Origin: Candidatus Levyibacteriota bacterium
GTDB lineage: Bacteria; Patescibacteriota; Microgenomatia; Levybacterales; UBA12049
DNA: 64,000 bases
NCBI GenBank assembly: GCA_016182425.1
Contig: JACPGP010000014.1
Coordinates: 26,846 to 90,845, forward strand
Reading direction: 5' to 3'
The position numbers and the translations under genes were made by a program. The notes below the pieces were generated by a model. It saw only the letters and a list, made by a program, of their open reading frames with translations. It was not told the DNA's origin and made no database searches. This document shows positions 2,941 to 61,896 of this stretch, piece after piece (positions within the stretch are counted from its first letter, which is position 1; each line of letters begins with the position of its first letter).

Positions 2941-3822
2941 ATGGTTGTATTATCAGTCATTATTCTAAATTATAATACTAAAGATTTAACAAAACAATGT
3001 CTAACATCGCTAGAAAATCATTATCGGGAAGAATTAAGAAAAGGAGTATTTGAAATTATTGTTGTTGATAATGCATCGACCGATACTTCGGCATCGGTAA
3101 TCTCAAATCTCAAATCTCAAATCTCAAATCTTACATTGATCAAAAATAAAGAAAATGTTGGATTTTCAAAAGGAAATAATATAGGAGCAAAAAATGCAAA
3201 AGGGAGATATTTATTGTTTTTAAATTCCGATACCGAAGTAGGAGATAATGGCTTACTTAGTGCGGTTTCATATGTAGAAGAACATAAAGATATTGGTGTT
3301 TTGGGCGCCAAATTACGTAACGCGGATGGTTTTGATCAGGCTTCTACCGGAAAATTTTATACCATAGGGAACGTTTTTTTAATGCTTTTTTTGGGTGAGC
3401 GATTCGGTTTATTACGCACCAGTCCAAAAACAATATCTGAAGTAGACTGGGTGAGTGGGGCGGCGCTATTGATAAGAAAAAAATTGTTTGATCAGCTTGG
3501 TGGGTTTGATGATCATTTTTTTATGTATATGGAAGATATGGAGCTTTGCTATCGCGTCAAAAAAATTAGCTATCAGGTTGTTTTTTATCCATACACAGTT
3601 ATTTATCATAAGGAGCTAGGCAGCTCGAATAGGGGTTTTGCAATTGCACATATTTATAAAGGACTTCTTTACTTTTACAAGAAACATATGAATTATATTC
3701 AGTATGTAATAGTTAAGATGTTGCTTATTACAAAAGCCTATGTCGCTATTGCTATTGGCATCTTTACTAATAATACATATTTAAGATCAACGTATAGACA
3801 AGCTCTGGCTTTTTCGCTATGA
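2941..3822 (+). CDS. GT2 glycosyltransferase
   Basis: SVIILNYNT...VVDNASTD...GFSKGNNIG...FLNSD...MEDMELCYR. Confidence 0.8.
   Translation: MVVLSVIILNYNTKDLTKQCLTSLENHYREELRKGVFEIIVVDNASTDTSASVISNLKSQISNLTLIKNKENVGFSKGNNIGAKNAKGRYLLFLNSDTEVGDNGLLSAVSYVEEHKDIGVLGAKLRNADGFDQASTGKFYTIGNVFLMLFLGERFGLLRTSPKTISEVDWVSGAALLIRKKLFDQLGGFDDHFFMYMEDMELCYRVKKISYQVVFYPYTVIYHKELGSSNRGFAIAHIYKGLLYFYKKHMNYIQYVIVKMLLITKAYVAIAIGIFTNNTYLRSTYRQALAFSL
3099..3131 (+). repeat. tandem heptamer AATCTCA x ~4.7, in-frame
   Basis: Direct reading gives aatctca at 3099, 3106, 3113 and 3120, plus aatct. It encodes ISNLKSQISNL. Confidence 0.95.
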
Positions 3823-8476: not shown

Positions 8477-9664
8477 ATGAAAATACTTATTGTTTCCTCT
8501 TTTCTTCCATATCCTCTTTTTTCTGGTGGACATGTCAGGCTTTTTAATCTTATTAAGGAGTTAGCGACAAAACATGAATTGACTATTGTTTGTGAAAAGA
8601 GATCACACCAAACAGATGCAGATATTATGGCAGTTAAGAGGTACTGCCAAACGCTCATTACCGTTGAGAGAAAGAAGCAGTGGTCGTTTCCCAATGTTTT
8701 TAGGACTGGTTTTTCTCCATTTCCATTTCTTCTGGTTGGACACACGAATGATGAAATGAGGCGAGCTATTATTAGACTTATTAATGAAAAATCATTTGAT
8801 CTTATTCATGTGGAAACGTTTTATGTCATGCAGAATATTCCAGACACCCCTCTCCCTGTTGTCTTAGTAGAACACAACATTGAGTATCTAGTATATAAAC
8901 GATATACAAAGATGGCTCCTTTTTTGTTTAGGCCCTTATTATATTTTGATGTTGCGAAACTTAAATATTGGGAAGAGATTTATTGGAGCAAGGCGACAAA
9001 ATTAGTAGCAGTATCGGAGGAAGAAAAAAAATTAATGAATAGAGAAGATGTGGAAGTCGTGTCAAATGGTGTAGATATACAAAAATTCAGAATTCAGAAT
9101 TCAGAATTCAGAATTAATAAAAAGGAGAAAAGAATATTATTCATTGGGGATTTTAAATGGTTACAGAATCGGGATGCTGTAGGGTGGATACTAAACGAAA
9201 TTTGGCCGGAAATAAAATCAAAAATAGAAGCGAAACTGTGGATTGTGGGGAAGGATATTCCTGATTCAATTAAAAAATTGTCGAGTGACCAAAATGTTAT
9301 TTTTGATGAAAATGCGCCAAAAGAGACTGCTGAAATTTTTGCCAAGGCAGATGTGCTTCTGGCCCCGATTAGAGTTGGGGGCGGAACGAGTTATAAAATA
9401 TTAGAAGCAATGGCAAGCGGTGTTCCTGTTATTACAACACCATTGGGTAGAGAGGGGATTGATGCAAAGGACAGGCAAGAAATTTTGCTGGCAGAGGATA
9501 CAGATGAATTTGTTAAAAATATTGTCGATATTTTTGATAATGAAAAACTCTATAAAAAAATCGCGCATAATTCCAGAAAACTAATTGAGGAAAAATATGA
9601 TTGGAAAATAATTGTAAAAAAACTTGAAGATGTTTATCGAGATGCAATTACTACGTATGATTAA
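8477..9664 (+). CDS. GT4 glycosyltransferase
   Basis: FLPYPLFSGGHVR N-terminus, NGVD linker, and GGGTSYKILEAMASGVPVITT in the C-domain. Confidence 0.8.
   Translation: MKILIVSSFLPYPLFSGGHVRLFNLIKELATKHELTIVCEKRSHQTDADIMAVKRYCQTLITVERKKQWSFPNVFRTGFSPFPFLLVGHTNDEMRRAIIRLINEKSFDLIHVETFYVMQNIPDTPLPVVLVEHNIEYLVYKRYTKMAPFLFRPLLYFDVAKLKYWEEIYWSKATKLVAVSEEEKKLMNREDVEVVSNGVDIQKFRIQNSEFRINKKEKRILFIGDFKWLQNRDAVGWILNEIWPEIKSKIEAKLWIVGKDIPDSIKKLSSDQNVIFDENAPKETAEIFAKADVLLAPIRVGGGTSYKILEAMASGVPVITTPLGREGIDAKDRQEILLAEDTDEFVKNIVDIFDNEKLYKKIAHNSRKLIEEKYDWKIIVKKLEDVYRDAITTYD
9084..9115 (+). repeat. tandem heptamer AATTCAG x ~4.6, in-frame
   Basis: Direct reading gives aattcag at 9084, 9091, 9098 and 9105, plus aatt. 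It encodes FRIQNSEFRI. Confidence 0.95.
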
Positions 9665-10547: not shown

Positions 10548-11622
10548 TGCCAGGTTGTGGAATGAGAGTGGAGTTGGGCGATACATCAGAAACCTCGTTG
10601 CCCAGTTACAAATTTTGGATAAGAAGAATGAGTATATTCTGTTTGTTTTAGGAAAAGACTATGTCGGCATTAAAGGAAACAATTGGAGATTAGTAAAAGC
10701 TAATATTCGTTGGCATACAATTGAAGAGCAGTTAAAGTTTCCATCAATTCTCTACAAGGAAAAACTAGATTTGGTGCACTTTCCTTATTTTTCAGTTCCT
10801 ATTTTTTACAACAAGCCTTTTGTCGTAACAATTCACGATCTGATATTGCATCATTTTCCAACAGGGCAGGCTTCGACACTCCCCATGCCTTTTTATTGGG
10901 CAAAACATTTAGGATATAAATTTGTTATATCACAAGCTGCTAAGCGCGCAAAAAAGATTATCGCAGTATCGAATGCAGCAAAAGATGAAATCGTTGATCA
11001 TTTACATGTTGATCTTAATAAGGTAGTTGTGACATATGAGGGAGTAGATCTTCCAAGCTCAAAGTTACAACTTAAAACTCGAAGCTATTTTCTTTATGTG
11101 GGGAATGCATATCCGCATAAGAATCTGGAGAGATTGATTGAAGCGTTTGCAGGAATCAGGAATCAGGAATCAGGAATCAAGCTAATACTCGTTGGGAAAG
11201 AGGATTATTTTTATAAGAGACTAAAAGAAAAAGTACAAAAGATGGGACTTGAGAAAAAAATAATTTTTCGTGGAGAGGCGACAGACGAAGAACTCGCAGG
11301 TTTATACAAAAATGCATTAGCACTTGTTATTCCGTCTCTTATGGAAGGATTTGGATTGCCTATTTTGGAGGCGATGGCAAATAAATGTTTGGTTTTAGCA
11401 TCTGATACTCCAGCTCATCACGAAATTGCAGACGACGCAGCAATCTATTTTAATCCGAATAATACAGAAGATATAGCAGAGAAAATGAAAGCTAGTTACA
11501 ATGATACGCATCATTATAGTGAAAATATTGAGAAGGGTTTTGAGAGAAGTAAAATATTTTCGTGGGAAAAAATGGCAAAAGAGACATTAAAGATTTATGA
11601 AAGTAGCATTGGTCTACGATAG
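10531..11622 (+). CDS. GT4 glycosyltransferase
   Basis: MRIGIDARLW...GVGRY N-terminus and IPSLMEGFGLPILEAMANKCLVLAS. The start at ATG 10531 is preferred. Confidence 0.8.
   Translation: MRIGIDARLWNESGVGRYIRNLVAQLQILDKKNEYILFVLGKDYVGIKGNNWRLVKANIRWHTIEEQLKFPSILYKEKLDLVHFPYFSVPIFYNKPFVVTIHDLILHHFPTGQASTLPMPFYWAKHLGYKFVISQAAKRAKKIIAVSNAAKDEIVDHLHVDLNKVVVTYEGVDLPSSKLQLKTRSYFLYVGNAYPHKNLERLIEAFAGIRNQESGIKLILVGKEDYFYKRLKEKVQKMGLEKKIIFRGEATDEELAGLYKNALALVIPSLMEGFGLPILEAMANKCLVLASDTPAHHEIADDAAIYFNPNNTEDIAEKMKASYNDTHHYSENIEKGFERSKIFSWEKMAKETLKIYESSIGLR
11151..11179 (+). repeat. tandem heptamer AGGAATC x 4, in-frame
   Basis: Direct reading gives aggaatc at 11151, 11158, 11165 and 11172. It encodes GIRNQESGI. 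Confidence 0.95.
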
Positions 11623-12688
11623 AGTGAATAAATGGGGAGGGGCAGAGAGAGTATTACTTTCGCTGCATGAGATTTTTCCGCAAGCTCCGCTGTATACTTC
11701 AGTATACAACCCGATGAAGACACCATGGGCAAATGTATTTGTTTTAAAGACATCATTTCTTCAAAAATTTCCTTACGCGTCGTCTGTTCATGAATTATTG
11801 CCAGTGTTTATGCCGCTGGCCTTTGAGAGCTTTTCGTTTGATCAGTATGATCTTGTTATTTCGGTAACATCAGAAGCAGCAAAAGGGATTATTACAAAAC
11901 CAGGCACGCTTCATATTTGCTATTGTCTTACTCCTACTCGTTACTTATGGAGCGGGTATGAAGAATATTTTAAAAATCCAGTTAATCGATTTTTTACACA
12001 GCCAGCAGTGTCGTATCTTCGTAAATGGGATTATATTGCAGCACAACGTCCAGATGCGTATATTGCTATTTCGAAAGAGGTACAAAAAAGAATTAAAAAA
12101 TATTATGGAAGAGAATCAGAAGTAGTGTATCCTCCAGTTGATCTGCCCAGTGTCAAGTATCAAGTGTCAAGTATCAAGGGAAAGGAGGCTGGTTTTTTTC
12201 TTGTTGTTTCTCGGCTTGTGCCTTATAAGCGAATTGATATCGCCATTAAGGCATGTAATAGATTGCAGTTGCCGCTTAAAATTATAGGTACTGGATCGGA
12301 AGAAGGGAGACTCAAAAGCATTGCTGGTCAAACAATCGAGTTCTTGGGTAACTTGACTGATAGTGAGCTGGTAGGGTATTATAAAGCTTGTCGTGCGCTC
12401 ATTTTTCCCGGCCTGGAGGATTTTGGGGTTGTCGTCGCAGAAGCCCAGAAGTTTGGTAGACCAGTAATTGCGTTTTATGGGGGAGGAGCGCGTGAAATTG
12501 TTAAGGAGCAAAAGACAGGATTATTCTTTTATCCTCAGACAACAGAAGCACTCGTAAGTACACTTATTATGTTTGAGAAAAAAAGGTTTTCTTCTGCGAT
12601 TTGTGCCGATAATGCGGAAAGATTTTCGTTAGCGTTATTTAAGAAGACGTTTATGTCATTGATAGAAAAATTAAAGGATCACGTTTAA
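11597..12688 (+). CDS. GT4 glycosyltransferase
   Basis: KWGGAERVLLSL N-terminus, YPPVD linker, and FPGLEDFGVVVAEAQKFGRPVIA. Confidence 0.75.
   Translation: MKVALVYDRVNKWGGAERVLLSLHEIFPQAPLYTSVYNPMKTPWANVFVLKTSFLQKFPYASSVHELLPVFMPLAFESFSFDQYDLVISVTSEAAKGIITKPGTLHICYCLTPTRYLWSGYEEYFKNPVNRFFTQPAVSYLRKWDYIAAQRPDAYIAISKEVQKRIKKYYGRESEVVYPPVDLPSVKYQVSSIKGKEAGFFLVVSRLVPYKRIDIAIKACNRLQLPLKIIGTGSEEGRLKSIAGQTIEFLGNLTDSELVGYYKACRALIFPGLEDFGVVVAEAQKFGRPVIAFYGGGAREIVKEQKTGLFFYPQTTEALVSTLIMFEKKRFSSAICADNAERFSLALFKKTFMSLIEKLKDHV
12149..12179 (+). repeat. tandem heptamers AGTGTCA/AGTATCA alternating (14 bp x ~2.2), in-frame
   Basis: Direct reading gives agtgtca agtatca agtgtca agtatca agg. It encodes SVKYQVSSIK. 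Confidence 0.95.
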
Positions 12689-23412: not shown

Positions 23413-24830
23413 GTAAGATTAAATCAATTCATTTTGTAGGCATAAAAGGGGTTGGGATGGCGCCTTTGGCGATTATTGCTAAAGAAGCAGGATTTCGTGT
23501 TTCCGGTTGTGACATCAAGGAGGAGTTTATTACAGATGAGCCACTACAAAAAGCCGGTATTATTCCAATTGTGGGTTTTAGTAAGAATCATATTAGGTCT
23601 TGTGATTTAATTATTACTACAGGAGCACATGGCGGGTTTGATAACCTTGAGGTTGTAAGCGCAAGAGAGCAGGGTATCCCTATATGGACCCAGGGAGAGG
23701 CTGTTGGGAAATTTATGGAGGGGGAGATTTTTAATAGGAAGCAGTTTGGTATTTCGATTACCGGATCACATGGTAAAACTACCACAACCGCCATGCTGGC
23801 GACTGTTTTGAAGCAGGCGGGAATGGATCCTTCGTATATTGTTGGAACCGGCATTGTTCCATCTTTGGGAAGCAACGGACATTATGGTCGTGGAAAATAT
23901 TTTGTTGCCGAGGCAGATGAGTATGCGACTGAACCCAGTTATGATAAAACCGTTAAATTTCTGTGGCAGCGTCCGGAAATTGCGATTTTTACCAATATTG
24001 AGCTTGATCATACCGATTTGTATCCATCGGTTGATGTTATCCGAGAGGCATTTTTGCAATTTGCCAATCAGCTTCCTTTAAAGGGTGTGCTTATAGCGTA
24101 TGGTTCTGATCCACAGGTGCATAAACTATTGAGAGAGTTCAGAGGTCATTCGATTACCTATGGGTTTACACAAGACAATGATTTTGCCATTACAAGGGTT
24201 AGTAATTCCGATGCGCAAACATTCTTTTGGTTGTCAAACAAAGGTAATTCGCTTGGAGAATTTACGCTTTCCATCCCTGGAGAACATAATACTCTTAATG
24301 CAACTGCGGCAATTATAGCCAGTCTTGAGTGCGGAATTTCGATTGATTTAATAAAGCGAGGACTTATCAAGTTTGTGGGAAGCAAGAGGAGATTTGAATA
24401 CGTTGGCACGCTGCCTTCAGGAGCATTACTATATGATGATTATGCACATCACCCTACAGAGATAAAAAAGACTTTGTCGGCATTTCGAAAGCGATTCCCA
24501 AAATATAAATTAGTTTGTTTTTTTCAACCGCATACTTATTCTCGAACAAAGTCATTGTTCGATCAATTTGTTAGTTCATTTAATGCTGCGGATACTGTTA
24601 TTATAAGCAATATTTATTCATCTCTTCGTGAAAGACCAGATCCAACCATATCATCGAAGCTTCTGGTTGATGGAATACGTAAGTTTCATAAAGAGGCGCT
24701 CTTTTTGCCAGAGCTTTATGATGTGGTAGAATATATCAAACGACAACAGTATGGAAAGGATACTGTTGTTATTACTATGGGAGCCGGCGATATCTACAAA
24801 ATAGGTCAAAAGTTAAAAGTCAAAAGTTAA
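23409..24830 (+). CDS. murC: UDP-N-acetylmuramate--L-alanine ligase
   Basis: IHFVGIKGVGMAPLA, ITGSHGKTTTTAM, DDYAHHPTEI. Confidence 0.9.
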   Translation: MSKIKSIHFVGIKGVGMAPLAIIAKEAGFRVSGCDIKEEFITDEPLQKAGIIPIVGFSKNHIRSCDLIITTGAHGGFDNLEVVSAREQGIPIWTQGEAVGKFMEGEIFNRKQFGISITGSHGKTTTTAMLATVLKQAGMDPSYIVGTGIVPSLGSNGHYGRGKYFVAEADEYATEPSYDKTVKFLWQRPEIAIFTNIELDHTDLYPSVDVIREAFLQFANQLPLKGVLIAYGSDPQVHKLLREFRGHSITYGFTQDNDFAITRVSNSDAQTFFWLSNKGNSLGEFTLSIPGEHNTLNATAAIIASLECGISIDLIKRGLIKFVGSKRRFEYVGTLPSGALLYDDYAHHPTEIKKTLSAFRKRFPKYKLVCFFQPHTYSRTKSLFDQFVSSFNAADTVIISNIYSSLRERPDPTISSKLLVDGIRKFHKEALFLPELYDVVEYIKRQQYGKDTVVITMGAGDIYKIGQKLKVKS

Positions 24831-24836
24831 AAGTTA
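24806..24836 (+). repeat. tandem heptamers TCAAAAG/TTAAAAG alternating (14 bp x ~2.2), spanning the murC stop and abutting the murB start
   Basis: Direct reading gives tcaaaag ttaaaag tcaaaag ttaaaag tta. The murC TAA is at 24828-30 and the murB ATG at 24836. Confidence 0.95.
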
Positions 24837-37314: not shown

Positions 37315-38445
37315 ATGAATATGCGACTTATTATTGCTGTCGGCGGGGGCGGGCATTTTGCTCCTGCTCTTGCGATACTTCCATTTCTGCCAAAAGGGGC
37401 GGAGGTTCTTATTATCGGGAGAAAGTATTCTTTTGAGGGAGATAAAGCGTTGTCTCTGGAGTACCAAACAGCCAAGCGCCTAGGTATTTTGTTTGCTCCG
37501 CTTACTACAGGAAGACTGCAGAGAGTGTTTACACGCCATACCATTCCTTCGCTTTTGCGGTTTCCTCATGGCGTTTTGCAGGCATATAAAATCTTGCGTG
37601 TGTTTAAACCTAAGGTGGTTTTATCTTTTGGCGGATATATCTCGTTGCCGGTTGTTCTGGCAGCGTATTTTCTGCGGATTCCGGTTGTTCTTCACGAACA
37701 GACACTAGAGGCTGGCATGGCCAATAGAATTGGCTCGTTTTTTGCCAAGAAAGTGTGTGTTTCGTGGGAAACATCAATTAGATTTTTTCCTCATTCAAAA
37801 ACAGTATTGACGGGAAACCCGGTAAGAAAATTTTCTCCGGCTCAGCCGGACAATTCTCAATTCCCAATTTCCAATGAAAAATTACCACTTGTCTATATTA
37901 CAGGGGGGAGTGCGGGATCACACGCGATTAACGTATTGGTTGAGGGATGTATAAATAAGCTTCTTGAAAAGTTTATTGTATTGCATCAAACAGGCGACTT
38001 TAGGCAATACGAAGACTACGAGAGGCTTTGGCGTATTCGAAATAATCTGCCAAAGCCAATAAAAGACCGATACTTGCCGGTAAAATTTGTAGAGCCATTA
38101 CAGGTGGGGGCGGTGCTGGGTAAAGCAGATTTAGTAGTTGCCCGTTCAGGGATAAACACGGTTACAGAGCTTATTTTTTTTGGAAAACCGACTATTTTTA
38201 TTCCTCTCCCCTTTTCCCAAAATGATGAGCAGAAGAAAAACGCCAACTTTATGCGCGACCTCGGCCTGGCAGAAGTTTTGCCGCAGCATACTTTGACGCC
38301 AGATAAATTGCGCGCGCTTATCTTTTCGTTGTATGCAAATTTAGATGAGTATGTAAAACATGCCAAAAAAGCCCGAAGTATGGTAAAAGAAAACGCGCCG
38401 GAGAAGATTGTGGAAGTACTTATAAGTGTTTCGGCCGCAAAATAG
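37315..38445 (+). CDS. murG: UDP-GlcNAc:lipid I GlcNAc transferase
   Basis: AVGGGGHFAPALA, ITGGSAGSH, ARSGINTVTELIFFGKPTIFIP. The ATG at 37315 is preferred. Confidence 0.9.
   Translation: MNMRLIIAVGGGGHFAPALAILPFLPKGAEVLIIGRKYSFEGDKALSLEYQTAKRLGILFAPLTTGRLQRVFTRHTIPSLLRFPHGVLQAYKILRVFKPKVVLSFGGYISLPVVLAAYFLRIPVVLHEQTLEAGMANRIGSFFAKKVCVSWETSIRFFPHSKTVLTGNPVRKFSPAQPDNSQFPISNEKLPLVYITGGSAGSHAINVLVEGCINKLLEKFIVLHQTGDFRQYEDYERLWRIRNNLPKPIKDRYLPVKFVEPLQVGAVLGKADLVVARSGINTVTELIFFGKPTIFIPLPFSQNDEQKKNANFMRDLGLAEVLPQHTLTPDKLRALIFSLYANLDEYVKHAKKARSMVKENAPEKIVEVLISVSAAK
37836..37876 (+). repeat. 15-bp palindrome plus degenerate heptamers CAATTCT/CAATTCC/CAATTTC/CAATG in the murG interdomain linker
   Basis: tccggc-tca-gccgga (37836-50), then the heptamer tract at 37851-76. 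Together they encode SPAQPDNSQFPISNE. Confidence 0.8.
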
Positions 38446-50076: not shown

Positions 50077-50179
50077 CCCGCCTGCACTGGCCGATTGGCT
50101 CAGTTGGTTAGAGCGCTTCATTCACATTGAAGAGGTCGGAGGTTCGAATCCTCCATCGGCCACAGTTACGGCGGGCAGG
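50077..50179 (+). other. 103-nt insertion in the outer tRNA: GC clamp CCCGCC...GGCGGG flanking the inner tRNA
   Basis: CCCGCC (50077-82) is complementary to GGCGGG (50170-75), and ACT (50086-88) to AGT (50164-66). The 3' flank is shared with ileS 46341-46378. Confidence 0.8.
50089..50162 (+). tRNA. tRNA-Val(CAC), intact, nested in the insertion
   Basis: GGCCGAT/ATCGGCC acceptor, GCTC-AGTTGGTTA-GAGC D-arm, CTTCA-TTCACAT-TGAAG anticodon arm, AGGTC variable loop, GGAGG-TTCGAAT-CCTCC T-arm, A73. No CCA is encoded. Confidence 0.9.
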
Positions 50180-50235
50180 GCGTTGCATTCACATTGCAAA
50201 GGTCCCAAGTTCAAATCTTGGTGCGCCCACAAATT

Positions 50236-59228: not shown

Positions 59229-59969
59229 GTGAGTGCACAAAATAGAAGGAAAACCCACGAGGTATTTCATAAAAGGGCTCTTTTACAAAAAAGAATAATA
59301 AAGGAAACTAATTTCACTTATAGAATTATTCTTTCTGTATTAAACAAATATTTTATAGAAAAAAAGAAAATTTTAGATATTGGTTGTGGCGTTGGAACAA
59401 TATGTCTATATTTAGCAAATAGAAATAATAATGTTTTTGGAATAGATATTTCTCAAAATGCTATTACCTCCTGTAAGCAAAGTGCTAAATCTTTACATAT
59501 TAAAAATGCTTCTTTTGAAAGAATGGATTTTCCGAATAGTATACCCGATGAAAAATTTGATTATATTTTGTGTAGCGAAGTAATTGAGCATCTCGAAAAT
59601 GATGAATTAGCTTTAAGAAAAATATACTCACTTTTAAAACCAAAAGGAGTTGCTATTATTTCAACTCCTTCAAAAAATGCCCCACTTTATAGACTAGGTT
59701 TAGCAAGAAATTTTGATCAAAGAGTTGGCCATTTAAGACGTTATGATCTGGAAGATTTGGTAGGAATGTGTAGGAAAACAGGATTCCATATATTAGAAAC
59801 AAGAAAAACAGAAGGAGTATTAAGGAATTTCTTATTTCTAAATCCGATTGCTGGGAAGTTTGTCCGATTTATTAAATTCTTTATTTCTGATATAGTGACT
59901 TTTCTTGATGAAATTTCACTGAGGTTATTTGGTGAGTCACAGGTATTTGTTGTAGTTGGAAAACCATGA
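59229..59969 (+). CDS. class I SAM-dependent methyltransferase
   Basis: Motif I ILDIGCGVGT; post-I FGIDIS; LKPKGVAIIS. Confidence 0.75.
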   Translation: MSAQNRRKTHEVFHKRALLQKRIIKETNFTYRIILSVLNKYFIEKKKILDIGCGVGTICLYLANRNNNVFGIDISQNAITSCKQSAKSLHIKNASFERMDFPNSIPDEKFDYILCSEVIEHLENDELALRKIYSLLKPKGVAIISTPSKNAPLYRLGLARNFDQRVGHLRRYDLEDLVGMCRKTGFHILETRKTEGVLRNFLFLNPIAGKFVRFIKFFISDIVTFLDEISLRLFGESQVFVVVGKP

Positions 59970-60964
59970 CTATTCTTTTCTTCTCCCGGCTTTTTTGGCC
60001 GCATGGGGGTGGGGTGGAGAGGCATGTTTTGGAGGTGGGGAAGAGGTTAGCTAAAAAAGGGCACAAGGTAACGGTTGTAACAGAGAGCGCTGGAAATTCG
60101 GGAAATATTTTTGGCATACACATTGTGCGACATGATTTTGGAGGGGGGGACTGGTTTAAAAAATTTCGGATTTGGAAGTGGTTGTGGCAGCATAGAGAGC
60201 TTATAAAAAATGCTGATATTGTGCATGCCCATGACGTGTTTTTCTGGTATCTACCGTTTCGGTTTTTGTATCTTAGCAAACCTGTCTATACCACATTTCA
60301 CGGCTACGAAACTAGGTTTCCCCCTGCAAAAAAAGCCATTTTCTGGCGTAAATTAAGTGAGAAGTTATCGTGGGGCAATATTTGTGTAGGAGACTATATA
60401 CAAAAATGGTATGGTACGATGCCGACCTACGTAACGTATGGAGGCGTAGACGTTCACCTCGGAGGAGTCCATCCGGCCACCTCCGAGGTGCTAAAGATCA
60501 TGTTAATTGGGAGGTTTGAGAAAGATATTGGAGTTTTTCAATATTTAGAAACATTGGATTTTCTAAAAAAACAAAAAATTGATTTCAGATTTGAAGCGTA
60601 TGGGGAAGGCTTGCTGCAAAGACAAATAGAAAAGTATGGAAAAGTATATAGGTATCCGAAAAATATTGAAGAAAAAATTGCAGGTGCGGATGTGGTGTTT
60701 GCGTCGTCGTATCTTTCTATACTGTCAGCTATGGCTGCTAGAAAGCCAGTTATAGCTGTATACACCAACCCGCTTAAAAAGGATTATCTTACTATGATTC
60801 CATTTAGTAAATTTATTTCTATTGTTGACTCGGCAGATAAAATTGCAGATGAAGTCGAAAATTTAGGAAAAACACAGACGAGGGTCGAGCAGGCGTACGC
60901 GTGGGCAAAAGAGCAGACCTGGGAAAAGGTGATGGAAATGTATCTAAAACTTTGGAGGATATGA
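59966..60964 (+). CDS. GT-B fold glycosyltransferase (GT4-like)
   Basis: WPHGGGVERHV N-terminus and GGVD linker. The C-domain is weakly conserved. Confidence 0.55.
   Translation: MTILFFSRLFWPHGGGVERHVLEVGKRLAKKGHKVTVVTESAGNSGNIFGIHIVRHDFGGGDWFKKFRIWKWLWQHRELIKNADIVHAHDVFFWYLPFRFLYLSKPVYTTFHGYETRFPPAKKAIFWRKLSEKLSWGNICVGDYIQKWYGTMPTYVTYGGVDVHLGGVHPATSEVLKIMLIGRFEKDIGVFQYLETLDFLKKQKIDFRFEAYGEGLLQRQIEKYGKVYRYPKNIEEKIAGADVVFASSYLSILSAMAARKPVIAVYTNPLKKDYLTMIPFSKFISIVDSADKIADEVENLGKTQTRVEQAYAWAKEQTWEKVMEMYLKLWRI
60448..60490 (+). repeat. GC-rich palindromic element, copy A (in-frame in GT4-like gene)
   Basis: The 11-bp stem cacctcggagg (60455-65) pairs with cctccgaggtg (60480-90). Its first 22 nt are identical to copy B. 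Confidence 0.9.
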
Positions 60965-61896
60965 AGATTTCGTTTATTACAACTGTTTTTAATGAGGAAG
61001 CGACAGTTGAGGCGCTGTTGGAATCTATCATACGGCAGTCGAGGATGCCGGATGAGGTAATTATTGTAGATGGAGGAAGTACAGACGCTACGGCATCTAT
61101 AATTTCAAATTTCACAAAGACGTTCACCTCGGAGGAGTCGAAGTCGCTGCTTCGCCACCATCCGAGGTGGAAAACTATTACGAAAAAAGGAAACAGGGCG
61201 GTGGGGAGGAATGAGGCGATAAGGCAGGCGAGTGGGGATGTTATTGTATCTTCGGATGCGGGGTGTGTGTTGGATAAGGATTGGGTGAAAAATATTACCG
61301 AGCCGTTTAAAAATAAAGATGTCGATGTTGTTGCAGGATACTACAAAGGCATGCCAAGAACAATATTTCAAAAGTGTCTTGTACCGTATGTTTTGGTTAT
61401 GCCGGATAAAGTTGATCCACAAAATTTTCTTCCGGCAAGCCGTTCTATGGCATTTACAAAAAAGATATGGGAAAAAGCAGGAGGTTTTCCAGAAAAATAT
61501 TCCTCAAATGAAGACTTTGTATTTGCAAAGAGACTTAAAGAAATTAGCGCAAAAATTGTCTTTGCCAAAGATGCAATTCTCTATTGGATGCCTCGAAAAA
61601 ACCTCAAAGAGGCATTCGCTATGTTTTTTCGTTTTGCCTATGGTGATGCGCAAGCAGGAATCTTGCGGCCAAAAGTTTTTTTAATCTTTCTTCGTTATTT
61701 TCTTGGTGTTCTATTATTGTTAAGTTATATTAATGCTTTCTACGTAGTAGTTATTTTGTATACGGTCTGGTCAATATGGAAAAATTATCGCTATGCCAAA
61801 AAGTGGCAAGCAATTTTTATTTTGCCTATACTACAGATAGTGTCTGATATGGCGGTTTTATTAGGGACAATATGGGGTATACAAAACAAGCGATAA
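60961..61896 (+). CDS. GT2 glycosyltransferase with C-terminal TM segments
   Basis: ISFITTVFNEE, VDGGSTD, GNRAVGRNEAI, SSDAG. The ATG at 60961 (ATGA overlap) is preferred. Confidence 0.75.
   Translation: MKISFITTVFNEEATVEALLESIIRQSRMPDEVIIVDGGSTDATASIISNFTKTFTSEESKSLLRHHPRWKTITKKGNRAVGRNEAIRQASGDVIVSSDAGCVLDKDWVKNITEPFKNKDVDVVAGYYKGMPRTIFQKCLVPYVLVMPDKVDPQNFLPASRSMAFTKKIWEKAGGFPEKYSSNEDFVFAKRLKEISAKIVFAKDAILYWMPRKNLKEAFAMFFRFAYGDAQAGILRPKVFLIFLRYFLGVLLLLSYINAFYVVVILYTVWSIWKNYRYAKKWQAIFILPILQIVSDMAVLLGTIWGIQNKR
61101..61114 (+). repeat. tandem heptamer AATTTCA x2, immediately 5' of palindromic copy B
   Basis: aatttca aatttca. The site is homologous to the x4.7 AATCTCA tract in the paralogous GT2 at 3099. 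Confidence 0.8.
61118..61169 (+). repeat. GC-rich palindromic element, copy B (in-frame in GT2 gene)
   Basis: cacctcgga (61125-33) pairs with tccgaggtg (61161-69). An inner hairpin is cgaag-tcgctg-cttcg. The first 22 nt are identical to copy A. Confidence 0.9.

Follow-up and report, generated by a model that had tools for sequence, protein, structure and literature searches.

The 64-kb stretch of DNA from a Candidatus Levyibacteriota bacterium analysed here (the window, 64,000 nucleotides in full) contains two adjacent genes for glycosyltransferases (GTs), one of the GT4 family and one of the GT2 family, which overlap by ATGA, and each of them carries one copy of a GC-rich palindromic element, copy A in the GT4 gene and copy B in the GT2 gene (Table 1). 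The NCBI protein names of both hosts are those of Candidatus Levybacteria, a group of the Candidate Phyla Radiation (CPR, or Patescibacteria), whose tiny, gene-dense genomes are thought to be poor in repetitive DNA. An earlier note, made from the sequence alone, had read the two copies as a nucleotide-level element that occupies permissive protein loops and resembles Rickettsia palindromic elements (RPEs), or hairpins like those of repetitive extragenic palindromic (REP) sequences and of MITEs (miniature transposable elements with inverted repeats), and this reading is supported by the further copies, host genes, alignments and structural models described below.

Copies A and B in the window

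The 22-mer AGACGTTCACCTCGGAGGAGTC, with which each copy begins, occurs exactly twice in the window, at 60448-60469 and 61118-61139 on the + strand, as had been noted earlier; no third match appeared with up to three mismatches allowed, and 0 were expected from 100 shuffles. The core of copy A is laid out as CACCTCGGAGG-AGTC-CATCCGG-CCACC-TCCGAGGTG with a perfect 11-bp stem, and its right end, CCACCTCCGAGGTG, closes at 60490. In copy B the right arm has a bulged A and the inner hairpin is CGAAG-TCGCTG-CTTCG, with GAAG/CTTC as its stem; the right end of this copy, CCACCATCCGAGGTG, closes at 61169. Both copies finish with the inverted arm CCACC(A)TCCGAGGTG, and their lengths (43 and 52 bp) and hairpins agree with the earlier description. 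The predicted RNA hairpin energies are -25.0 kcal/mol (z = -2.35) for copy A and -28.6 kcal/mol (z = -4.79) for copy B. The element has a GC content of about 66%, against about 38% for the window, and the genomes that bear it have 33-44%. The translations confirmed that the two copies are read in different frames: copy A is read in the GT4 frame as YGGV-DVHLGGVHPATSEV-LKIM, with DVHLGGVHPATSEV as the element peptide, and in copy B the reading is shifted by one phase, which gives NFTKTFTSEESKSLLRHHPRWKTI in the GT2 gene, where the element itself is translated as KTFTSEESKSLLRHHPRW.

No further copy, intact or degenerate, was found in the window, nor was one found in the 4 kb past its end (contig L257, 100% identical). 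With just two copies in 64 kb, both in adjacent GT genes and with seven extra bases in common on their left side, a purely local event could be considered, that is, gene conversion or duplication between the two genes, or a protein motif common to both. Such an origin has next to no probability, because GT4 and GT2 are unrelated folds, the common DNA is read in different frames, the similarity ends at the element on the right, and other genomes carry more than 150 copies in unrelated genes. Conversion between paralogues and a common protein motif are thus refuted by the family data and the different frames. The earlier note had held that its idea would fail if these were the only two copies and their similarity extended into the flanks; instead, the family is large, and only two flanking bases, T-Y, are general to it.

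Anatomy of the family

The copy statistics rest on 155 strict copies in 128 loci (860 kb). The family unit consists of T-Y, CACCTC[S]GAGG, AGTC, a variable inner hairpin, CCACC with an optional bulged base, and TC[S]GAGGTG. The outer stem has 11 bp (CACCTC[S]GAGG / CCTC[S]GAGGTG), the asymmetric junction of AGTC against CCACC (plus bulge) is conserved, and the inner hairpin is hypervariable (2-45 nt). Cores of 34 to 66 nt were observed, the modes of their length being 34-37, 44-46 and 52-56 nt, and copy A belongs to the short-loop class (34-38-nt core), which holds 74 of the 155 copies. Outside the core, only positions -2 (T in 116/142) and -1 (C or T in 133/142) are conserved, and the right flank has no conservation. 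The AGACGTT flank of the window copies is of a RACGTY type that is not general to the family: it was present in 15 of 142 copies, in several of which it forms the spacer between two inverted adjacent elements. The 5' motif of Escherichia coli REPs is GTAG, and GTAG is absent from the 5' flank of the family copies.

Pairing within the hairpin is under evident constraint. For the central S pair, 94 copies have G..C, 44 have C..G and only 4 have non-complementary bases, with a two-arm search pattern that permitted all four combinations. In the 45-nt class, 98.7% of positions in the stems are paired, four inner-stem pairs change on both sides, and the covariation score was reached by 0 of 500 shuffles. 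A base pair that would extend the stem outward is avoided (13 observed vs 37 expected). In 84 of 100 copies the better fold is that of the complement of the AGTC strand, with an advantage of 1.8 kcal/mol; because host orientation is divided 50/50, this bias does not identify a transcribed functional strand. A search of Rfam 15 gave no relevant family at E up to 10 over 60300-61300, and the whole window at gathering score gave tRNA only.

The arms (e.g. 60455-60465 and 60477-60490) are made up of GGAGG(T/A)G, the core of the Shine-Dalgarno sequence, and of the complementary CACCTCC, which is identical to the anti-Shine-Dalgarno tail of 16S rRNA. Each element therefore holds an internal ribosome-binding-like site masked by its own complement. 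The possibility that the element ends serve as ribosome-binding sites for downstream genes was rejected (4 cases vs 3.5 expected).

Some palindromes differ from the family unit in their stems. A very large open reading frame (ORF) on contig L249 contains a related yet distinct palindrome, CACCTTCCAGGTG-...-CACCTGGAAGGTG, which suggests that there are sister families whose stems are altered. Among the metagenome copies, too, variants with compensated stems were seen, CACCTTCGAGG/CCTCGAAGGTG and CACCTCCCAGG/CCTGGGAGGTG.

Distribution and host genes

The search for further copies that had been proposed earlier was productive. The two-arm pattern matched at least 120 metagenome contigs, largely from groundwater projects, and true copies were also present in a Parcubacteria metagenome-assembled genome (MAG; inside LepA), in a Levyibacteriota MAG and in three other low-GC MAGs. 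Genome contigs (596 Gb) were scanned with the 15-mer CACCTCSGAGGAGTC, which is too short, as most of its 120 listed matches are chance occurrences in high-GC genomes; among the matches listed, only those in L023, L058, L073, L105 and L114 are real copies. Viral contigs gave 0 matches to the two-arm pattern, and there is no sign of a phage vehicle. A 30-aa peptide across copy B, compared with 1.84 billion representative proteins, matched three unrelated repetitive proteins, the query being too short to inform. [quoted passage not shown]

Relative to the longest open frame covering each copy, 65 copies lie in the same orientation and 66 in the opposite one, and all three phases are present. Such a frame of at least 70 codons covers 131 of the 155 copies, and 80 copies are strictly in frame, with at least 40 open codons on either side in a single frame. 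The 14 apparent frame shifts fall mostly at gene boundaries or beside another element (C-terminal tails, between genes), and the other copies lie near gene ends, near contig ends or between genes. The repeat is a nucleotide-level entity, found in either orientation, in every phase, in many unrelated genes, at gene ends and in intergenic DNA.

The 59 host ORFs that were scanned matched 71 Pfam families. Hosts include FGAM synthase (PurL, four), peptidase M24 (four), PMT-type mannosyltransferases (six) and TsaE (three), and further LepA, GT2, GT4, ArgRS, LeuRS, TrmD, fructose-bisphosphate aldolase and TatD; glycosylation genes (PMT, GT2, GT4, DUF2298) account for about one fifth of the host-family matches. 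Several copies can occur on a single contig (e.g. L001, L114, L185 and L259): L001 has three across its GT4 and GT2 genes, and L002, a closed 762-kb Levyibacteriota genome, has one. Adjacent inverted pairs were seen on L136, L192, L205, L218 and L222, and most copies, including both in the window, are single.

Two dense cases were observed in passing: a TPR-like protein on L114 with apparently four or five element-derived segments, and a GT4/GT2 pair on L259 with four copies. Local clustering of this kind could come from copying over short distances, or from hosts that tolerate the element unusually well.

Reading frames and predicted structure

Stop codons were present in 83 of 600 element frames, compared with 181 +/- 10 in composition-matched shuffles, and were depleted in all six frames. 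The phases of the in-frame copies are distributed 33/12/35, with the Pro/Arg-rich reading under-represented (chi-square ~12, p ~0.002). The earlier note had proposed that the 9-bp difference between copies A and B keeps both hosts in frame. The difference is real and lies in the inner hairpin only, but the cores of the family are not confined to multiples of three (length modulo three 38/31/11 among in-frame copies). The encoded peptides have 12-22 residues, are rich in Ser, Gly, Arg, Glu and Leu, and include FTSEESKSLLRHHPRW, HLGGVHPATSEV and HLGWWRGNDLDSSEV. Judging by their open frames, copies inside genes are read through by the ribosome as a Ser/Gly/Arg/Glu-rich loop.

Alternatively, the element might be left untranslated, being removed from the mRNA or bypassed by the ribosome like the mitochondrial 'byp' inserts or T4 gene 60, and a stable hairpin inside coding sequence, with many core lengths that are not multiples of three, would suit such a process. 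Excision or translational bypass is nevertheless very unlikely, as the clearly intragenic copies all keep one open frame (the apparent shifts having the positions given above), and, for an element that is skipped, neither the depletion of stops in six frames nor the avoided phase would serve any purpose.

Overall, AlphaFold predicts the two window proteins with confidence (pLDDT, the per-residue confidence score, 89.9 and 90.4), and in both models the insert lies in a loop predicted with lower confidence. In the GT4 model (m854849482444), confidence is lowest (block pLDDT 61) for residues 161-170, which lie in the coil that joins the two Rossmann domains, with strands 155-157 and 176-181 on its two sides. 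In the GT2 model (mdcf1d67d933d), residues 51-70 have blocks of 79 and 75, with 90-94 on either side, and the insert joins helix 44-55 to strand 69-74. The models thus agree with the loop placement in the earlier note, namely the interdomain linker of GT4 and the loop after GGSTD in GT2. The notion of an insertion into these loops is correct as to location and does not hold as to added length: in the alignments, the window copies add no loop length relative to their homologues and occupy hypervariable linkers.

Conservation at orthologous sites

Among the GT4 and GT2 homologues, the closest (55-77% identical) have the same odd peptides both at these loops and at others (DVHLGGV.., FTSEES..HHPRW, ..PATIRG and RSPFGHLGG), and the DNA of two orthologous clusters (L001 and L002) identified the common unit as a nucleotide sequence. 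Compared with its L001 orthologue, the window GT2 gene is 74.5% identical and its copy B element is identical at 45/45 positions, the identity peak of the 3.8-kb region aligned. Similar values were obtained for PMT (element 45/45 and 43/45, gene 68-70%), TsaE (36/36, gene 68%) and PurL (42/45, gene 69%); overall, the PurL, PMT and TsaE elements are 93-100% identical and their host genes 66-74%. Differences in the inner stem are compensatory (GAAG/CTTC to GAGG/CCTC). The PMT, TsaE, PurL and GT2-L001 pairs were partly chosen by DNA pattern, and a set of six GT2 genes was chosen by protein homology alone. In these six orthologues, the arm stretches TTCACCTCGGAGGAG and CACCATCCGAGGTGG (15 nt each) are identical at all bases, while third-codon-position identity outside the element is 0.41-0.70; the inner loop is variable, with a short form in one lineage. 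The arms at the GT4 linker site are likewise conserved in four orthologues.

The alignments of orthologues also brought out presence and absence, as well as different variants or compound elements at one site. The GT4 linker site is filled in the L002, L258 and L259 orthologues and empty in L001. On both gene trees, GT2 and GT4, occupied sites are distributed in patches, with differences between sister sequences, and one orthologue has an extra adjacent copy that another lacks. Sites appear to be intact or empty, and decayed copies are not visible in the GT alignments. According to the earlier note, conservation of the same peptide in orthologues of distant relatives would tell against a nucleotide-level element. 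Orthologues do formally conserve the peptide, yet the idea stands: what is conserved is the DNA, including third positions, and in other places this DNA is read in different frames.

This conservation brings forward the serious rival explanation, a functional DNA or RNA hairpin maintained by purifying selection and not selfish, whose spread into genes would be secondary. Such a hairpin might, for example, bind a conserved CPR protein, serve as a signal in recombination or replication, or, within the mRNA, slow down ribosomes where domains meet, and copy A is placed precisely in the linker between two domains. The six GT2 orthologues do not differ in their arms at all (100% identity) despite GC-rich codons (ACC, TCG, GAG, CCG, AGG) in a 38% GC genome, and the high identity of the PurL, PMT and TsaE elements relative to their hosts, the compensatory inner-stem changes, the lack of visible decay and the use of one 11-bp stem in both Levybacteria and Parcubacteria are all as such a function would have it. 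A hairpin would also work in either orientation, so that the 65/66 balance is no counter-argument. Nevertheless, the unrelated hosts, the scattered sites and the patchy occupancy among close orthologues indicate that no host gene needs the element, and the conserved asymmetry and the 5' T-Y point to a strand-specific enzyme over a generic hairpin. There was no Rfam match and no enrichment of the element as ribosome-binding site of downstream genes, and concerted evolution among copies could yield equal conservation. On balance, we consider a functional hairpin of this kind rather unlikely.

Search for a mobiliser

The 750 ORFs from element-bearing loci were clustered, which gave a Y1_Tnp family on four contigs. 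These proteins resemble REP-associated tyrosine transposases (RAYTs): Pfam Y1_Tnp was matched with E = 1.5e-12, and their sole NCBIfam match was REP_Tyr_transpos with 74.3 bits (cut-off 80). Homologues occur in Levybacteria and other Patescibacteria with the conserved synteny sortase, RAYT, NDK, peptidase M16 and ArgRS. On either side of the RAYT-like genes stands another palindrome, TATAAGGAC-N-GTCCTTATA or TAAAGGAC-A-GTCCTTAA, also written (T)ATAAGGAC-N-GTCCTTAT(A), with dispersed extra copies. The flanking palindromes are AAGGAC-N-GTCCTT on L129, L245 and L251 and CGAGGTC-N-GACCTCG on L211 (sites in Table 1). The RAYT-like genes and their own palindrome look like a REP-RAYT system in Patescibacteria that is distinct from the hairpin element.

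A genuine REP/REPIN-RAYT system, in which the element would be a REP mobilised by a domesticated Y1 (HUH) tyrosine transposase encoded by one gene per genome, was weighed against these data. In its favour, the palindrome of the element is short and imperfect, has a bulge or mismatch, is preceded by the conserved T-Y and shows no target duplication, inverted adjacent pairs exist, and the RAYT-like family is present in Levybacteria, with genes on element-bearing contigs 0.3, 1.0 and 3.2 kb from an element copy. Against this, the RAYT-like genes carry what looks like their own REP, the canonical element is absent within 10 kb of three independent RAYT loci (about 47 kb), the window contains no RAYT, and REPs are extragenic by definition whereas at least half of the element copies are intragenic. 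The co-occurrence is marginal (3 independent loci vs about 0.8 expected, a rough estimate). We therefore regard this system as quite improbable for the element. No RAYT or IS200-type transposase, for which the earlier note had proposed to look, could be tied to the element as its mobiliser. Clustering of the ORFs in 860 kb revealed no insertion sequence (IS) with element termini, although no search was aimed at such an IS.

Comparison with known systems

RPEs are about 150 bp long and form ten families, with 44 insertions in Rickettsia conorii, nearly half of them (three families) inside ORFs (PMC10969869). The element resembles them as a palindromic repeat that lies in frame in many unrelated genes, housekeeping genes included, adds a peptide that is tolerated at the surface and has no known transposase. 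In-frame insertion into unrelated genes is evident from the 80 in-frame copies and the diversity of the hosts, and the predicted structures (pLDDT 61 and 75-79 in the inserts, about 90 or more elsewhere) are consistent with inserts in loops that leave the fold undisturbed. The element differs in its size (core 34-66 nt vs about 100-150 bp), in its GC content of 66% in genomes of 33-44% GC, and in its CPR hosts (Levybacteria, Levyibacteriota and Parcubacteria), which are not Rickettsia or Rickettsiales. It uses every phase and both orientations, whereas RPEs have one conserved peptide per family. Orthologous RPEs decay along with their hosts, and the arms of the element are identical across orthologues with near-saturated synonymous sites. 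The element thus works like RPEs yet stands outside the RPE family by size, composition and host, a separation made from the description of RPEs.

REPINs reportedly show long-term persistence (bioRxiv 10.1101/2021.07.10.451892; PMC8049555), and the element resembles them in persisting for long with a conserved structure. It is likewise a short imperfect palindrome that is repeated in genomes and has no target duplication; its 5' T-Y and its occasional inverted pairs may correspond to the 5' motif of REPs and the doublets of REPINs. In contrast to REPs, which are extragenic, at least half of its copies are intragenic and in frame (131/155 in an open frame of at least 70 codons), most copies are singlets, and the RAYT-like genes of these lineages are flanked by other palindromes, none by the hairpin element.

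The GC clusters and double-hairpin elements of fungal mitochondria are short mobile GC-rich palindromes of AT-rich compact genomes, in frame for example in yeast var1, and their mobility is linked to specific target motifs and duplications. They differ from the element in being organellar and not bacterial, and there is no sequence relationship. Bacterial MITEs (Correia, ERIC, Chunjie) are likewise non-autonomous repeats with inverted termini that fold into hairpins, the arms of the element being 11 nt. A typical MITE is longer and AT-rich, lies for the most part between genes and has target-site duplications at its flanks (PMC10969869), whereas the element has no target-site duplication and no related IS turned up in the ORF clustering.

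Origin and maintenance of the element

Considering the above results, we think it likely that the window hairpins are members of a dispersed, DNA-level family of hairpin repeats of CPR/Patescibacteria that has been copied or converted between sites and filtered by selection to permissive loops. A plausible model can be proposed in which a trans-acting enzyme that recognises the single-stranded hairpin and its asymmetric junction would copy the repeat to new sites or convert one copy by another, leaving no target-site duplication; by analogy, this would resemble the action of HUH/Y1 enzymes on the ends of REPs and IS200/IS605. Only copies that keep the frame, lack stops and land in tolerant linkers would survive selection, and repeated conversion or selection would keep the arms intact at sites occupied since the hosts diverged by about 30%.

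Several observations weigh against this model. Simple selfish junk would not be expected to keep base-perfect arms at old orthologous sites; such arms have no explanation in any simple selfish-DNA model and fit a maintained or functional element at least as well. No mobiliser could be tied to the element, the RAYT-like genes tested as candidate being found on 4 of about 125 element-bearing contigs and flanked by a palindrome of their own. There is no target-site duplication, flank matches of 1-7 nt being no commoner than in shuffled pairings. No filled and empty pair was obtained between near-identical genomes, so that transposition and the exact element boundaries are putative. The density in the window is low (2 copies in 64 kb, both in one gene pair). 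As to the sample, the metagenome loci were chosen by intact arms, and decayed copies would therefore be missed there; the metagenome contigs have no taxon labels, and the three low-GC MAGs are labelled Gammaproteobacteria, a label that is unconfirmed.

Within the family reading, we tentatively entertain the possibility that the hairpin is actively maintained within coding sequence, either as a long-lived replicator kept by continual conversion or as a DNA/RNA hairpin with a host function. At least two CPR lineages have the 11-bp stem and the asymmetric junction in base-for-base agreement, and this conservation across lineages and at near-saturated orthologous sites would imply a conserved hairpin-recognising protein, possibly a hairpin-binding enzyme, in CPR bacteria. 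The base-perfect arms at old sites also make the choice between a selfish, a conversion-maintained and a functional element a testable one.

A hairpin repeat that colonises genes, including essential ones (LepA, PurL, aminoacyl-tRNA synthetases and TsaE), would be the counterpart of RPEs in a second lineage with reduced genomes and would supply a new source of variation in protein loops. The spurious peptide motifs that it makes common to unrelated proteins (HLGGV..TSEV, FTSEES..HHPRW, DSSEV) can mislead homology searches and domain-boundary calls, and the repeats can serve as recombination or assembly break points in MAGs. New here are how large and how widespread the family is, the exact anatomy of its members, the lack of target duplication and of any transposase linked to it, and the base-perfect arms at old sites.

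Other features of the window

Table 1. Positions of the hairpin copies, their host genes and other features; unprefixed positions refer to the window, L numbers to other contigs
Feature	Position	Strand	Description
GT4-family glycosyltransferase gene (host gene 1)	59966-60964	+	332 aa; copy A fills the interdomain linker, residues ~162-175
Copy A	60448-60490	+	43 nt: left flank AGACGTT (7 nt), then 36-nt core hairpin 60455-60490
GT2-family glycosyltransferase gene (host gene 2)	60961-61896	+	311 aa; copy B after GGSTD, residues ~53-70
Two AATTTCA heptamers	61101-61114	+	Immediately upstream of copy B
Copy B	61118-61169	+	52 nt: left flank AGACGTT (7 nt), then 45-nt core hairpin 61125-61169
Perfect heptanucleotide tandem repeats	879-911, 3099-3131, 9084-9115, 11150-11179, 12149-12178, 24808-24836, 37851-37875		
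tRNA-Val	50089-50163		
tRNA-like sequence	50171-50229		Directly after tRNA-Val
TPR-like protein	L114 618-2021	-	Apparent element-derived segments
GT4/GT2 pair	L259 3001-6440		Four element copies
Distinct palindrome	L249 1718-1760		Within a very large ORF
RAYT palindrome/gene sites	L129 167-211, 843-865		
RAYT palindrome/gene sites	L245 3345-3385, 4022		
RAYT palindrome/gene sites	L251 10621, 14103, 16038		
RAYT palindrome/gene sites	L002 19241		
RAYT palindrome/gene sites	L211 2191-2936		

The two AATTTCA heptamers that the earlier note had pointed out beside copy B are indeed present; they lie outside the element and are probably part of a separate heptamer-repeat phenomenon in these genomes. 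The perfect heptamer arrays of the window each have a different unit, in about 4.1-4.7 copies, and by their coordinates lie mostly inside listed ORFs. Period 7 is specific: 929 kb of CPR-like sequence contained 29 perfect arrays of at least four copies, vs 1 each for periods 4, 6 and 8, and unrelated control loci (879 kb) contained only 4 perfect period-7 arrays. In loops where the window holds the palindromic element, orthologues carry (AATTTTC)n, read as the peptide NFQFSIFN. Since gain or loss of a heptamer unit would shift the frame, the arrays may be phase-variable contingency loci, or they may be a second loop-filling repeat.

The short tRNA-like sequence behind tRNA-Val scores 29.5 bits in Rfam (threshold 29), is not called by ARAGORN and agrees with the 3' half of tRNA-Val at 73% of positions; it could be either a duplicate that has decayed or a piece of a tRNA. 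Finally, the GC skew is positive in every 2-kb bin of the window (0.02-0.25) and nearly all long ORFs lie on the + strand, an asymmetry that may resemble the strand compositional asymmetry that reportedly exists in a closed Microgenomates genome.

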